Part shown: in pieces, positions 1-11,145 of the stretch | Position numbering within the stretch: position 1 is the stretch's first letter | Layout of the letters: each line of letters opens with the position of its first letter | Virus record (IMG/VR): IMGVR_UViG_2802429224_000014 | Reading direction: 5' to 3' (one strand) | Length of the DNA stretch: 11,145 bases | DNA from: a virus | Taxonomy: Duplodnaviria > Heunggongvirae > Uroviricota > Caudoviricetes | The notes under the pieces: generated by a model | What the model saw: the letters and a program-made list of their open reading frames with translations, nothing else | Told to the model about the DNA's origin: nothing | Databases searched by the model: none | Made by a program: the position numbers and the translations under genes

Positions 1-537
1 TTACTCGTCCAGCAGCACCACTTTGCCGATATACGGCAGATGACGGTAACGCTGTGCGTAATCGATGCCGTAGCCAACCACAAACTCATCCGGAATAGAG
101 AAACCGATAAATTCTACCGGTACGTTCACTTCACGGCGAGACGGTTTATCCAGCAGCGTACAAATCGCCAACGATTTCGGTTCGCGCAGGCTTAAGATTT
201 CACGCACTTTCGACAGTGTATTACCCGAGTCGATGATATCTTCAACAATCAGCACATCCTTGCCGCGGATATCTTCATCCAGATCTTTGAGGATTTTCAC
301 ATCACGGGTGGTGGACATGCCGCTACCGTAGCTGGAGGCGGTCATAAAATCGACTTCATGAGATACCTGAACTTCACGGCACAGGTCCGCCATAAACATA
401 AATGAGCCACGCAGCAGGCCTACCAGCACCATATCGCTGCCGCTGTCTTTGTAACGCTCAGTAATCTGACGACCCAGTTCAGCGATACGCGCTTTAATCT
501 CCGCTTCGGGGATCATTACTTCTACAATATGTTTCAT
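1..537 (-). CDS. hpt: hypoxanthine phosphoribosyltransferase
   Basis: Complete 178-aa ORF (ATG at 537..535, TAA at 3..1). The translation is essentially identical over its full length to E. coli Hpt as I recall it, including the PRPP-binding motif [13 protein letters not shown]. Confidence 0.96.
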
Positions 538-1117
538 GATTCACATAACCCACTGATTTTTGTCAGTTAAAAACAAATTTACACGTAGCAATTTATCAAA
601 AGTGATACACCGAATGATATACGGATCGATACACAGCGCCACAATCTCAAAAAAGCACCAGCACAATTAGAAGGCCGCGAGTATACAACATCAGAAACAG
701 GAGAGGGCAAAGCACGTAATAATTTTCGTTTTTCACAAACGCAAAAATTTGGCGAGGCTGGCGGTCCCGGCAACATGAAGCTACATAGATTTTGATCCCC
801 TGCATGGTGATGATGCCCATACAGGGCTATTTCATTTCAACGGAACCGGTATGACGAACATGATCGCACCTTCTCCCGAAAACGGTGCGACCTCCATAGA
901 GGAAATGCCTATTCAGATCCCCGGTGATTTTCACCATTCAGAATCTGGAGGGTGAGTTTTCCTGTTTTCCCCAATGGGGGATTCTGGAACAATCAACGGG
1001 TTACGCCTTACCAGCAAAAAAGCACATCAACTGTAACGGAAATCGTTATGGCTGCTGGTGGGCCAAATCATCATTACGGTGATGCAGCTATGTAGACGTT
1101 CCGGTCTCCTCAAATCG

Positions 1118-1320
1118 AGGTTTCCGAAAATATCAGTGAGTTAGCGATTAAGCTGGCGAGTAATTAAACTACGAAAATTTCGTAGTTTGTGACTATCTGA
1201 AAGATAGTCGGTTGATCCGGCCTCAGCCGTTGGCTGTTCCCGAAAATATCAACGGGTTAGGCTGGTTTCCCCGATGTTCGCCGCTGGCGAATTTCGAAAA
1301 TATCAACCAGTTACCGCCGT
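1118..1320 (+). repeat. three direct repeats with core CGAAAATATCA (at about 1125, 1243 and 1296), with two short palindromes between them (ACTACGAAA-A-TTTCGTAGT at 1169..1187; GACTATC-TGAAA-GATAGTC at 1191..1209)
   Basis: Read directly: gtttCCGAAAATATCAgtgagTTAgc / gttcCCGAAAATATCAacgggTTAgg / aattTCGAAAATATCAaccagTTAcc. Function unknown; the third copy overlaps the 3' end of the 1311..1595 ORF. Confidence 0.6.
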
Positions 1321-1595
1321 AACCGTTCCGGTTTCTTCCAGTGGTAAGTATTTTTCGCGCTCTCCCTCCGTTGCTGAGAACGGCGACGACATGCCAGCAA
1401 CTCGAGAACTCTGGTTCGTATGTTGCGCATATCCACGCCGTTAAGCTCGATACCGTCACGGCGCATCACCTCAGCCACTACACGCGCGTAATTTTCGGCT
1501 ACCACGCTGTCCGGCTGCATGGCCTCCTGTTTGCCTGCTGGCGGTCTGATTCCGGCAATCTGGCGAATCATTTTGAGCATTTCGGCTTCGGTCAT
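1311..1595 (-). CDS. hypothetical protein, about 94 aa, start chosen at the second ATG
   Basis: Minus-strand ORF; GGAGG lies 8 nt upstream of the ATG at 1595 (the ATG at 1601 has only a 2-nt spacer). No recognisable motifs. Sits just beyond the cosQ side of cos-A. Confidence 0.4.
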   Translation of the reverse strand: MTEAEMLKMIRQIAGIRPPAGKQEAMQPDSVVAENYARVVAEVMRRDGIELNGVDMRNIRTRVLELLACRRRSQQRRESAKNTYHWKKPERLRR

Positions 1596-1626: not shown

Positions 1627-1845
1627 GCCGTAATTGTGGCGGGTCCTTCCTGGAAAATGAAATACCGGGGGTAGCCATACGCGCAATTCTTAACTGTTTA
1701 TGAAAATTTTTCGGGAAAAGTCAGATCCGTTCTTCTTCTCTGTAACTCATTGTTTAATGGTAAAATCATCAAAAAAAGAAAGGATCTGACAGTGGTCATT
1801 TTGGGCCAAAAATGACGTTATCAGATCCTTTCTCAGTTTTGTTCA
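1627..1845 (+). other. cos-A: lambda-like cohesive-end site in plus orientation (cosQ-like 1638..1653, cosN-like about 1664..1686, cosB with R3-like 1721..1738, IHF-like AT-rich segment 1743..1770, inverted R2-like 1777..1792, R1-like 1821..1836)
   Basis: By eye the sequence follows the lambda cos junction as I remember it: GCGGGTCCTTCCTGG (lambda CGGGTCCTTTCCGG), a GC-rich cosN-like core ACCGGGGGTAGCCATACGCGC, TTTATGAAAATTTTTCGG (lambda TTTATGAAAATTTTCCGG), CCGTTCTTCTTC (present in lambda R3), then GAAAGGATCTGACAG and TCAGATCCTTTCTC (lambda GAAAGGAAACGACAGG and CTGTCGTTTCCTTTCTC). R-site consensus here is TCAGATCC(T/G)TTCT in a direct, inverted, direct arrangement. Confidence 0.7.
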
Positions 1846-1860
1846 ATAATTGCGCGGCTG

Positions 1861-2445
1861 TCACTCACCTTTCTGTTGCCGTAATTTCTCCGGCACGTTT
1901 CCGGTTGTTTCCATCAGGTAGTCCTTCAGAATGCGGGGCAGGTTATCGGCAGTTTTAGCGCACGCATTACAGACGCGTGCTGTTTCTTTCCTCAGGCCCT
2001 CGATCATTGCCGGAGTCATCGCGGGGAACTGCCTTTGCATTGTGAGCGGTAAACTATCCATGATCGAAGAAATCTGGCGCGCCAGACCACGAAGCGCATA
2101 GAGAACGAACTCAGTATCTGTAACTTCCCCCGTCTCTCTGGCGTTCTTCAGTTCCTGCCCGTCCGCCTGTGCTTTGGTAAGACGGTAGCGTTCGTACTCT
2201 GTTGTGCCTGGCTGTAAATCTGATTCACCAGCAGCACGTAAATCATCAAGCTCCCTGCGGAGTTTTTCGTTTTCGATGTCCTTCTCCCTCTGTGCATACC
2301 ATTCGATCACCTGTGCAGAGTCGAAAGTCACTTCCACACCTTTACCCCCACCAGATACATGGGGAAGCCCTTGCGTTTGCCATCGTTCAATCGTGCGCGG
2401 ATCGACGCCAAAAATCTTCGCAATATTATTTTTATTAACATTCAT
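1861..2445 (-). CDS. terminase small subunit, lambda Nu1-like
   Basis: 194-aa ORF with AAGGAA RBS 7 nt upstream of the ATG at 2445. The N-terminal half aligns by eye with lambda Nu1 (MNVNKNNIAKIFGVDPRTIERWQTQGLPHVSGGGKGVEVTFDSAQVIEWY...IENEKLRREL...DLQPGTTEYERYRLTKAQADGQELKNAR versus lambda MEVNKKQLADIFGASIRTIQNWQEQGMPVLRGGGKGNEVLYDSAAVIKWY...). Confidence 0.9.
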   Translation of the reverse strand: MNVNKNNIAKIFGVDPRTIERWQTQGLPHVSGGGKGVEVTFDSAQVIEWYAQREKDIENEKLRRELDDLRAAGESDLQPGTTEYERYRLTKAQADGQELKNARETGEVTDTEFVLYALRGLARQISSIMDSLPLTMQRQFPAMTPAMIEGLRKETARVCNACAKTADNLPRILKDYLMETTGNVPEKLRQQKGE

Positions 2446-2742: not shown

Positions 2743-3168
2743 TTACTTAACAGACAGCAACAGCTTTTCATCTTCGGTCAGTCCGGCGTTACCATCACCG
2801 GCTGCTGGCCCAACACATTTCGGGCTGTGCTTTTCCATGTACGCATCAAACAAAAAAGCCGTTTTCTTTTCCTGCATCATTGCCTGGGCATCCACAGTAG
2901 CCAATAACGTTTGTGCATAGGTTACTGTCATTGCTTCAGAATCACACTCAATCAGCTTACTGGTGAACTCAGGGTATTTTGATGCCAGCGGTAAAGCCTT
3001 GATACCCTCTATGCGCTGTTTATCACTCTCAGCCTTTGCAGTAAGCACCGTTCGGGCTTCTGTCAGTGATGCGCCATTATTCGCGAGATTTTCCGCAAGC
3101 GTCTGGTATTTCTGCGCTTCAGGCAGTGCCATGATCAATGCTCTGGTTGAATTTGCTTTCTCAGTCAT
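2743..3168 (-). CDS. hypothetical head-associated protein, 141 aa (possible scaffold or packaging-accessory role; unassigned)
   Basis: ORF in the capsid operon directly downstream of the gpD-like gene, with a 14-bp gap. No confident similarity recognised; position relative to E/D parallels lambda FI but the sequence does not obviously match. Confidence 0.55.
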   Translation of the reverse strand: MTEKANSTRALIMALPEAQKYQTLAENLANNGASLTEARTVLTAKAESDKQRIEGIKALPLASKYPEFTSKLIECDSEAMTVTYAQTLLATVDAQAMMQEKKTAFLFDAYMEKHSPKCVGPAAGDGNAGLTEDEKLLLSVK

Positions 3169-8129: not shown

Positions 8130-8158
8130 ATAAATACATTACATGAGGTGTAATTAAC

Positions 8159-8338
8159 GTGTCAACACACAAAAACGAAAGGCGTGGTAATCCTCCGTTC
8201 CAGTTCCGTTTAGATCCTGACTTACGGGAAAAGATGGAAAAAGCACAACAACAGGACGGCGATGATTCTCTTGCTGCCTGGATAAAGCGAATAATCCGCA
8301 AAGAATTACAACAGCGCGGTATCGAGCCAAAAGGCTGA
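8159..8338 (+). CDS. Arc/MetJ-type ribbon-helix-helix DNA-binding protein, 59 aa, GTG start
   Basis: Absent from the ORF track (GTG start, under 60 aa). GAGGTG RBS 8 nt upstream. Translation VSTHKNERRGNPPFQFRLDPDLREKMEKAQQQDGDDSLAAWIKRIIRKELQQRGIEPKG has the basic N-terminus, beta-strand, two-helix layout of Arc-family repressors. It is the only convincing plus-strand gene in the island. Confidence 0.65.
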   Translation: MSTHKNERRGNPPFQFRLDPDLREKMEKAQQQDGDDSLAAWIKRIIRKELQQRGIEPKG

Positions 8339-8427
8339 TAATCCACCAGCAAGCCAGCACACTGATCACATTGCCCACCAGCCAGCAAATCGCTATGATG
8401 TTCGGGCTTATGTTTAGTGTTTTCATT

Positions 8428-8475: not shown

Positions 8476-8760
8476 TTATGCAGCTTTCTTACCGTACGGA
8501 TTATTGACTTTATCTACAGCAGGTGGGTTACGAACCCACCAAAGCACATCAGAGAGAAGCCACGCACAGCTATTGCGCCCGAAATGACAACGAAGCGGGA
8601 AACGCCCTTCATTTTCCATTTTGAAGCGAGTTGAGCGCGACAGACTGGTGATTTCCTGGCATTCCTTTTCACGGATACGGCGATCAAATTCAAAACCGTA
8701 TTCTTCAAGAAGCGCCCGGCGTTGTTCTGGAGTTGGGGGAATGAATGTAGTTTTTGTCAT
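8476..8760 (-). CDS. alpA: AlpA-family transcriptional regulator / excisionase-like HTH protein
   Basis: Start taken at the ATG at 8760 (GGAGG RBS 4 nt upstream), giving 94 aa. Contains the AlpA signature EITSLSRSTRFKMENEGRFPLRCHFGRNSCAWLLSDVLWWV (compare the family pattern LSRSTIYR...GxFP...W...V..W). Confidence 0.8.
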   Translation of the reverse strand: MTKTTFIPPTPEQRRALLEEYGFEFDRRIREKECQEITSLSRSTRFKMENEGRFPLRCHFGRNSCAWLLSDVLWWVRNPPAVDKVNNPYGKKAA

Positions 8761-8842
8761 ATTGCCTCCACTGTATCTATGCTTGCGGAGGCTATTTTGC
8801 AATCTTTAATACTGGATTAAAATACAGTAGTAATCATAGAAA

Positions 8843-9827: not shown

Positions 9828-9918
9828 TGCGCTACCCTCAACGCCCTAAATACTTTACGAGCCAGGCGGGTAGGGTTTCCCGCTTTTCGGTTGGCCGACC
9901 TATGCCCGTAATATCAGT

Positions 9919-11145
9919 TTAACCTCTATTCGATACAGGTAACAGCACCACATTTTGATGATTACCCGCCAGAAGTTCTAATCGGCCATACCACTTATTC
10001 AACGCATCCATTTTCTCAGGTAAGTACAGACTACGGTTATAAATAGCCATCACCCCCGGCAATGCATGACCAAGTAAAAGCTCTACAATATGTGGCGCAA
10101 TACCCATATTATTTAAACCTGTAGAAAATGTTCTGCGCAAATCGTGAAGCGTCCATGGCTCATTATGATGAAAATCTTTGTATAGCCTACGCCCTTTAAG
10201 CGAAGCAGCCTGGCGGGAACGTTCTTCACCCAGTACAATTCCTGTTTTTCCCGTTTCCTTTTTTAGATCCTCAATCCATGGGCGAATGCCCTCTGGAATT
10301 GGACGAACTATTTTTTCACGAGTTTTGCTGTGTTCTTTAGGAACCGTCCAAATCCATGACTGAAAATCCCATTCACTCCACCGGGATAATCTTACTTCCA
10401 TTGTTCGCGCCCCAAACAGCACAAGCAACTTAAGCAGACGAAGATAATAAAGTTGCTGTTCATCGCTATAAGTACACCGCCATACATCAGCTAACTCACT
10501 ATCTGACAGCACCCTATCACGCTGCCCCGATGGTTGCCCTACATCCTGGATTGTCATAAAAGCCAGGGCATCACATGAGGCATAACGGCGAACCTTGCAG
10601 AATCTTAAGGCCTGTTTACAAATCTGGAACATTCGCCCGGCAGTGATTGGCCTGGACTGGTTAATTTCATCAAAACATGCCACCCAGTGACGCGTTTCAC
10701 ACCGGGATAACGGATAGTGGCCAAGACGCGGATAAATATGCTTACGTAATTGCGCCCGCACCAGTTCCTCGTCACTACGTTTTTTTCTTGCGTAATGAAT
10801 TAGCCAATATTCAAGGGCATCATGGACAGTTACGGGGTTAAGGTTTTCTTCTGCGCTAAGTTCTAATTCAAGTCGTGGATTCAGCCCTTCCGCATACCAT
10901 TTTCGGCATAGTTCCCTCTTCTCCCTAGCCATTTTCAACGACATGTCAGGGTAACGCCCAAGAACAATGCGCTCTAACTTGCTCCCACGCCCACCAAGAC
11001 GATAAGAGAAAACCCAACTAATGCATCCCATCATGGATACTTTGATGCTTAATCCTTCACCATCCGCAATGGTAATTACTGAATCCCGCTTTACGCCGAG
11101 AAGCGATCTTAATTTTTTATCACTCAGTTTGTTTGTGCCAGCCAC
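9919..11145 (-). CDS. int: tyrosine recombinase/integrase, P4-family; N-terminus at or just beyond the window edge
   Basis: 408 codons from a GTG at the window edge to TAA at 9921..9919. N-terminal region resembles the P4-type integrase arm-binding domain (KLSDKKLRSLLG...ADGEGLSIKVS). C-terminal catalytic residues are visible: HDLRRTF, LLGHA and a tyrosine in AIYNRS. Confidence 0.92.
   Translation of the reverse strand: MAGTNKLSDKKLRSLLGVKRDSVITIADGEGLSIKVSMMGCISWVFSYRLGGRGSKLERIVLGRYPDMSLKMAREKRELCRKWYAEGLNPRLELELSAEENLNPVTVHDALEYWLIHYARKKRSDEELVRAQLRKHIYPRLGHYPLSRCETRHWVACFDEINQSRPITAGRMFQICKQALRFCKVRRYASCDALAFMTIQDVGQPSGQRDRVLSDSELADVWRCTYSDEQQLYYLRLLKLLVLFGARTMEVRLSRWSEWDFQSWIWTVPKEHSKTREKIVRPIPEGIRPWIEDLKKETGKTGIVLGEERSRQAASLKGRRLYKDFHHNEPWTLHDLRRTFSTGLNNMGIAPHIVELLLGHALPGVMAIYNRSLYLPEKMDALNKWYGRLELLAGNHQNVVLLPVSNRG

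Follow-up and report, generated by a model that had tools for sequence, protein, structure and literature searches.

A hairpin-bearing array of putative IHF sites directly 3' of a conserved small gene in Escherichia coli phage-satellite islands

The window, by which we mean the whole stretch of 11,145 nucleotides analysed here, contains a PICI-like phage-satellite island of about 10.8 kb inserted at the 5' end of hpt. E. coli HNSQ2209 carries the same island between hpt and gcd, with 99.8% identity over positions 538-1700. By comparing the window with the empty site of K-12 and with the int-proximal junction of strain HNSQ2209, we defined a 19-bp att core, and island DNA is everything from position 538 onward. 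Since the core overlaps the hpt start codon, the island replaces the native promoter and 5' UTR of hpt, and hpt expression in lysogens must therefore depend on island DNA. The gene content includes a lambda E-type major capsid protein, a D-type decoration protein, an SSB and a RepA-type helicase/primase, besides the genes listed with the other features in Table 1. A preliminary description had reported direct repeats near the hpt-proximal end of the island; these do lie inside it, and they are missing from the empty hpt-gcd site of K-12.

Close to the small terminase gene lies a lambda-type cos, which was recognised by its colinear alignment with the left end of lambda and with the O157 island and by its inverted R repeats. 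Its R3, R2 and R1 repeats are altered, with GATCTGAC where lambda has GAAACGAC (region 1664-1866), and its cosN differs from that of lambda, the lambda GGGCGGCGACCT being retained in the O157 sister island. The Nu1-family terS stands tail-to-tail with cosB and not downstream of it. The 11.1 kb contain seven Chi sites, where shuffled sequence would lead one to expect 0.25. The one at 1054-1061 faces the direction in which RecBCD would enter after cos cleavage, and Chi-based protection may serve a satellite in which no gene was seen to resemble a RecBCD inhibitor.

Table 1. Features of the window and their coordinates
Feature	Position	Strand	Details
hpt	1-537	-	
att core	519-537		CTTCTACARTATGTTTCAT, 19 bp; island boundary
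Core-adjacent IHF-consensus site	546-558	-	AATCAGTGGGTTA; attP-type; same extended form as the units
Candidate integrase arm-type sites	602-634	+	GTGATACAC, ATGATATAC, TCGATACAC; 12-bp spacing
Unit 1	961-1003	+	Diverged, missed in the preliminary description; covariance model 42.2 bits, E=6e-9; hairpin TCCCC-aatg-GGGGA 968-981; spacer ttctggaac; IHF-consensus AATCAACGGGTTA 991-1003
Chi site	1054-1061	+	GCTGGTGG; conserved between array and att end in sister islands; outside the repeat
Unit 2 (preliminary copy 1)	1101-1143	+	Covariance model 45.5 bits; hairpin CCTC-aaatc-GAGG 1108-1120; spacer tttccgaaaa; TATCAGTGAGTTA 1131-1143, WATCAR form
Palindrome 1	1166-1188		AAACTACGAAA-A-TTTCGTAGTTT
Palindrome 2	1191-1209		GACTATCT-gaa-AGATAGTC
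Unit 3 (preliminary copy 2)	1217-1259	+	Covariance model 48 bits; hairpin CAGCC-gtt-GGCTG 1224-1236; spacer ttcccgaaaa; TATCAACGGGTTA 1247-1259
Unit 4, terminal (preliminary copy 3)	1271-1313	+	Hairpin TTCGCC-gct-GGCGAA 1277-1291; spacer tttcgaaaa; TATCAACCAGTTA 1301-1313
Conserved 94-aa gene	1311-1595	-	phrog_1561; last gene of late/packaging operon
Lambda-type cos	1664-1835	+	cosN about 1668-1680; R3 1720-1737; R2 1773-1790; R1 1818-1833
Small terminase gene (terS)	1861-2445	-	Nu1 family
All Chi sites, plus strand	1054, 5388, 7372	+	
All Chi sites, minus strand	5414, 6379, 8343, 8375	-	
Small unannotated ORF	8154-8426		
HTH regulator	about 8478-8762		From HNSQ2209 annotation
Tyrosine integrase gene (int)	9919-11145	-	

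The 11-mer CGAAAATATCA occurs exactly three times in the window (1125-1135, 1241-1251 and 1295-1305, all on the plus strand) and nowhere else in it, even when one mismatch is allowed. Shuffled sequence gave 0.39 matches on average, and three were reached in 2 of 200 shuffles. The three exact copies of the preliminary description are thus present, and each is followed, after four variable bases, by GTTA as it had stated; the spacings, given there as 118 and 53 bp, measure 116 and 54 bp. What did not hold was the extent of the repeat, for the true unit is not about 20 bp but about 43-45 nt long, includes an upstream hairpin and is present in four copies.

Each unit consists of a GC-rich stem of 4-6 bp with a loop of 3-5 nt, a spacer of 9-10 nt (ttYCCGAAAA or similar) and the motif WATCAR-N4-TTA. 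The fourth, diverged copy was found by a repeat finder, which placed it at 960-1004, and confirmed by a covariance model of the unit, which we built from 24 units. The model has exactly four matches in the window, all in the same orientation, and found no unit elsewhere in the whole island and its flanks or in 55 kb of K-12 DNA. The segment 1095-1196 recurs in many genomes with 88% identity.

The conserved 3' part of the unit resembles the binding consensus of the host protein IHF, which is WATCARNNNNTTR. Its strict form, WATCAANNNNTTR, has five exact matches in the window against 0.64 expected, a number reached in none of 200 shuffles, and three of the five fall in 991-1313. The WATCAR form adds the fourth unit and the site at 546-558 by the att core. 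Scored against WATCAR-N4-TTR, the four units comprise three exact WATCAA and one WATCAG, and all fit the consensus. Among 53 distinct units aligned with the covariance model, information peaks at ATCA and TTA while the N4 positions vary; in the resulting frequency matrix, W is A in 17 units and T in 34, R is A in 32 and G in 18, and TTA is kept in about 50 of 50, figures to be read with the fact that the model was seeded with units picked by this motif. The degeneracy of the motif is that of the IHF consensus, and from this degenerate match we infer that the units are IHF sites. A C at N1 and a G at N4 of the four-base gap are more conserved than IHF requires, as might be expected if the units share an ancestor or if something other than IHF reads the motif. 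The lambda H' site has an A-tract 9-14 bp upstream; in most units GAAAA or CTTTT lies directly 5' of WATCA, and it is the GC stem that stands 9-14 bp upstream.

The hairpin is as regular a part of the unit as the motif. A perfect stem of at least 5 bp ending 4-11 nt upstream of the motif was found in 26 of 32 distinct units, compared with 2% of shuffles, and for the window's own four units the chance of a rightly placed 4-bp stem is about 0.037 each. The sequences of these stems differ widely: we counted 18 different stem-loops, every one of them complementary, including CCTCA/TGAGG, ACTCA/TGAGT, CAGCC/GGCTG, TTCGCC/GGCGAA, TCCCCC/GGGGGA, (A)ACGCA/TGCGT(T), GCTCA/TGAGC and TTCCACA/TGTGGAA. Double-sided changes number 49, against 20.4 +/- 3.4 in shuffles, and none of 500 shuffles reached 49. 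In the model-based alignment all five stem pairs vary on both sides and the true register beats slid registers; such an alignment leans toward the structure used to build the model, and the raw list of stems makes the same point. Because the stems differ and yet stay complementary through double changes, the pairing appears to be under selection, and therefore a single-stranded state, of RNA or of single-stranded DNA, appears to matter. As to which strand functions, the mismatches are tied, with two G-T (G-U) and two A-C.

The array is locked to the gene beside it. Its product, a protein of 94 aa, belongs to a family that clustering at 90% identity divides into about 985 protein clusters, nearly all of E. 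coli or Shigella origin. In classical and capsid-forming satellites of E. coli alike, its gene is always the final one of the late operon. It has no match in Pfam, NCBIfam or the PDB, and its AlphaFold2 model shows three helices, of which the C-terminal one is basic, with no informative fold match. The preliminary description had questioned the C-terminus of this ORF on the ground that a repeat copy overlaps its 3' end. We reject that doubt: the copy overlaps the stop codon alone, the last TTA of unit 4 (1311-1313) being the complement of the TAA stop, and the C-terminus is secure because it is nearly invariant among homologues (...TY(H/Q)WK(K/R)PERLRR*, with PERLRR* unchanged).

To describe the surroundings of the gene more widely, we collected 41 loci, which gave 27 distinct sequences downstream of it. 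In 26 of these 27 distinct islands, between one and about nine units lie immediately 3' of the gene, the terminal unit sharing the 3 nt of the stop codon in the same register, and the first hairpin starts about 19 nt past the stop. Significant matches to the covariance model in the other loci fall only right beyond this stop codon or in the array of an island remnant, and their orientation is always that of the array. The one exception, locus L005, keeps the gene and has five TGTCAC direct repeats with 10-11 bp spacing directly after its stop codon (2950-3003), which may be an alternative protein-binding array; since L005 has the gene but no array, the array is dispensable or replaceable. Conversely, the island remnant L010 keeps the array without the gene. 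At locus L016 (2150-3250), a PerC-family regulator, a hypothetical gene and a (CCAGCCAG)n microsatellite lie between units, which suggests that units flank exchangeable cassettes.

Across islands, the array tracks the 94-aa gene and is independent of integrase type, att site and packaging type. It is carried by islands with Nu1-type terS and capsid genes (this window, Nissle 1917 and O157:H7), by DUF1441 islands with a protease-capsid fusion and by capsid-forming islands with HNH, TerS-P27, TerL and portal genes, and the islands that bear it occupy the hpt, phoQ, clpS, yejO and narP sites. Of the 5,426 complete E. coli genomes, at least 1,120 have matches to parts of 940-1315, which form a mosaic; the O157:H7, ST131 and Nissle 1917 lineages are among these genomes. 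A scan of species-representative genomes for relatives outside E. coli returned one Shigella locus alone. A search of 900-1320 against phage records gave no match, and one against plasmid records gave four short, unannotated matches.

The units stand in a region rich in other structure. Hairpin density in 900-1330 is about seven times that of the remaining window, and the array region folds far better than shuffles do on both strands (z of -6.65 on the plus and -4.89 on the minus strand). Two perfect palindromes lie between the first two copies of the preliminary description, just as it had reported, with 11+1+11 and 8+3+8 symmetry; the whole window has six distinct palindromes with arms of at least 8, against 0.9 in first-order Markov simulations. 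The first of the two, palindrome 1, accompanies unit 2 in many islands and is conserved in L006 and L011 and, in two copies, in L010; it might act as an operator or as a weak bidirectional terminator. Palindrome 2 has a counterpart in L016 about 25 nt 3' of the PerC-family gene that sits between units, and in the window it is probably the relic 3' hairpin of a PerC-type cargo cassette. Outside the four units there are extra short hairpins at 921-937, 1034-1048, 1068-1085 and 1310-1325; one example, a GGTGA-ttt-TCACC hairpin followed by ATTCAGAAT, recurs ahead of the first units in sister islands.

Several familiar kinds of element were considered for the unit and set aside. A scan for intrinsic terminators called none of the unit hairpins, its sole call being a GTTAC/GTAAC stem at 1325-1308 on the minus strand. 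The unit stems are followed by UUUCC or UUCCC and then A-rich sequence on the plus strand and by no U-run on the minus strand, and classical intrinsic terminators are excluded by this lack of U-tracts. Because the stems have only 4-7 bp, are weaker than REP stems and are without U-tracts, the unit hairpins would be poor terminators or exonuclease blocks. No match to a sigma-54 promoter that IHF might serve lies near the array. Integron attC sites carry GTTRRRY, and IS200/IS605 ends carry TCAA/TTAC; these two, along with CRISPR-repeat mimicry and type III antitoxin repeats, each fit only some units, and we dropped all four readings because of the absence of a cognate enzyme, the irregular spacing and the non-constant stems.

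A relic of tRNA or tmRNA is likewise rejected for the array, as ARAGORN finds nothing. Elsewhere in the window, a conserved block of two hairpins (GGCGGTCCCATAAGCAATGGGG...GGGATTTCGATCCCC) that resembles a tRNA T-arm occurs at about 756-800, and again at L005 2865-2925, L007 3605-3665 and L016 1498-1550. It is degenerate in the window, where ARAGORN finds no tRNA, and may be a small RNA or what is left of an older tRNA att site. An Rfam covariance search of 900-1330 returned nothing up to E=1; the only real Rfam match in the window is the int-alpA RNA motif (RF02996) at 9844-9910 on the minus strand, just downstream of int (55 bits, E=2e-9).

Based on these observations, we propose, tentatively and with somewhat less than even confidence, that the array forms the 3' boundary of the satellite's late operon, as an element that carries hairpins and is putatively bound by IHF. 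A role of this kind has been put forward for the RIB/BIME-1 elements of E. coli. The array sets in where the last gene of the late (packaging) operon ends, at its stop codon. In duplex DNA, host IHF would bind each unit and bend the DNA sharply every 50-140 bp; in the late transcript, the unit hairpins would form a structured 3' tail. Together they could attenuate or insulate read-through into cargo, into attP and int in the excised circle or into hpt in the integrated island, and the array would organise the DNA locally. IHF binding, the relevant hairpin strand and the function are what we infer here. The broader idea of the preliminary description, that these are repeated protein-binding sites, fits the data and their location in island DNA; the specific options it offered fare poorly, as set out below.

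The alternative that deserves the most attention, although we think it unlikely, is that the units act only as RNA, in the 3' UTR of the late operon or in an antisense or other non-coding transcript, and that the match to IHF is coincidental. They might then govern how the transcript is processed or how stable it is, or they might bind an RNA-binding protein or act as its sponge, the adjacent small protein being a possible candidate. The compensatory stem changes do indicate a single-stranded state, hairpins are frequent in this well-folding region, the distance from the stop codon of the conserved gene to the first hairpin is always about 19 nt, and the C-terminal helix of the 94-aa product is basic. 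However, the split conservation of the motif (ATCA, four free bases, TTA), with its W/R degeneracy, is typical of a DNA site and suggests one rather than an RNA site, and no Rfam family matches. A lambda-N-like Arg-rich motif in the 94-aa protein was also rejected: BLASTP produces no alignment with a lambda N sequence, and not all members of the family have the Arg-rich stretch, which is replaced by VQMYQEKEK in some islands that carry units. A narrower form of the idea, which we regard as rather more doubtful, makes the units a single-stranded cis element of the satellite in which hairpin and motif are read together on RNA by the adjacent 94-aa protein, IHF being a second reader or none. If true, such an RNA-protein module would be a new control of late-transcript read-through or stability, or a protein sponge, in phage satellites of E. 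coli.

The units could instead be neutral or selfish by-products, either scars of duplication and recombination or linkers for the exchange of packaging modules and cargo cassettes. This would account for BLAST matches that break inside or between units in a mosaic manner, for the GTTACCGCGCCG remnant, like the end of the ORF, that follows some internal units, for the cargo between units in L016 and for a copy number that ranges from one to about nine. We find it quite improbable nonetheless, because stems stay paired through double changes (CCTCA/TGAGG against ACTCA/TGAGT, for example) and the bases critical for IHF are almost invariant in 53 distinct units, both of which argue for selection on the units. 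A role as linkers would not exclude a function.

It is also improbable, and to a slightly greater degree in our judgement, that the units are DNA sites for a protein common to these islands, such as the 94-aa protein, and not for IHF. The gene and the array are nearly always adjacent, and the C and G of the N4 gap make a small AAC-NN-GTT dyad for which IHF has no need. Against this, the 94-aa protein has no recognisable DNA-binding fold or family, the variation of the motif follows the IHF consensus, and the two can be parted, L005 having the gene without the array and L010 the array without the gene.

The preliminary description had further suggested a part of the cosQ-distal packaging region. 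In this form the units would be an accessory packaging signal upstream of cosQ, which either bends DNA for the terminase at termination or protects the free end after cos cleavage. They do lie 350-700 bp upstream of the lambda-type cosN in this island, with a conserved and correctly oriented Chi just past them, and lambda cosB itself uses an IHF site (PMC9026076). Still, we consider this very unlikely. In capsid-forming islands the array follows terL and lies about 2.3 kb from the expected cos, a distance that takes cos, on gene order, to lie in the HNH-terS interval; the array is common to islands with three terminase types; and the known termination signals of lambda are close to cosN (PMC9026076). 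Nor can the units be counted among the lambda cos subsites, which have a fixed position relative to cosN and a terminase-specific sequence that the units lack.

The leading idea of the preliminary description, integrase arm-type sites of attP, is the least credible of all, and the data refute it. The units are, as the idea has it, directly repeated and placed within the island on its attL side, but the near edge of the array is about 420 bp and its far edge about 775 bp from the core, where arm-type sites are expected within about 50-200 bp of it on both arms; the int-proximal arm has no unit, and a search for the motif at the int-proximal end beyond the window, as had been suggested, found none; and the units stay unchanged beside other integrases and att sites (phoQ, clpS, yejO and narP), each with its own arm repeats, whereas the sequence of true arm-type sites should change with integrase and att specificity. 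Better candidates are the RTGATAYAC triplets, which lie 65-115 bp from the att core and are symmetric on both arms: the int-proximal arm mirrors the triplet of Table 1 with GTGATATAC, GTGATACAC and a more diverged third repeat (L001, about 24633-24670). Together with the core-adjacent IHF-consensus site, these triplets have the look of a full attP layout. Instead of RTGATAYAC, the end-proximal arm repeats of the phoQ and clpS islands are pairs of TAACTACACC.

Returning to the proposed boundary element, its significance would depend on IHF. If IHF binds, a major class of mobile islands would be tied to a host factor in how it expresses its late genes or organises its DNA. The unit and the 94-aa gene mark the int-distal end of these satellites, and the array region is present in both classical and capsid-forming phage satellites. 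The analysis also places the real att core and the candidate arm-type sites. In two papers on PICI packaging and in the Murialdo-Feiss analysis, cosQ, cosN, cosB and Rpp are discussed and the hairpin/IHF unit is absent; full-text searches on PICI and IHF found nothing relevant to the unit. The unit array is a previously undescribed, moderately ordinary kind of cis element, an IHF-consensus site combined with a palindrome; what sets it apart is how strictly it is coupled to one small gene and how widely it is distributed.

Among known systems, the IHF sites of lambdoid attP (H1, H2 and H') and cosB (I1) share their consensus with the units, and the units, like the lambda sites, are part of a mobile element that would depend on the host factor. 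Unlike those sites, the units have no recombinase or terminase site next to them, occur whatever the type of att or cos, and come in one to about nine copies in one orientation, each with its own hairpin. A second likeness is to nut-type sites, in which a conserved single-stranded box and a 5-bp hairpin are read by an Arg-rich protein. Read on the minus strand, the unit is a conserved linear motif, a short spacer and a 5-bp hairpin beside the gene of a small basic protein. The units differ in having no boxA-like sequence, variable loops of 3-4 nt and many tandem copies, and we take the likeness as a resemblance only.

The closest parallel is with RIB/BIME-1 elements. The linkers of BIME-1 carry an IHF site, and REPs vary yet keep their complementarity (PMC3333891). 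RIBs are located at the 3' ends of transcription units according to that paper's account of its reference 6. For RIB/BIME-1 and for the units alike, an architectural or attenuating function is probable (PMC3333891, with its citation of Boccard and Prentki 1993). Like these elements, the units combine an IHF-consensus site with a GC-rich extragenic palindrome whose arms are variable but complementary, immediately follow an operon's final gene and may be tandemly repeated. They differ in that they have neither the REP consensus nor the GTAG/CTAC tetranucleotide, their stems are of 4-7 bp only (with one of 8 and one of 11), and a single hairpin stands on one side of the IHF site in place of two inverted REPs. 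The units thus share the extragenic 3' position and the IHF-consensus site with BIME-1/RIB and do not have its inverted y/z1 REP pair around an L linker; a scan of 50 kb of K-12 DNA for REP plus IHF gave no comparable element to align. They are also confined to satellite islands and locked in register with the stop codon of one gene. Because of the missing REP consensus, the single short hairpin and the confinement to satellites, we place the units outside the RIB/BIME-1 class. If IHF binds them, the array would be a tractable, island-borne analogue of these chromosomal elements.
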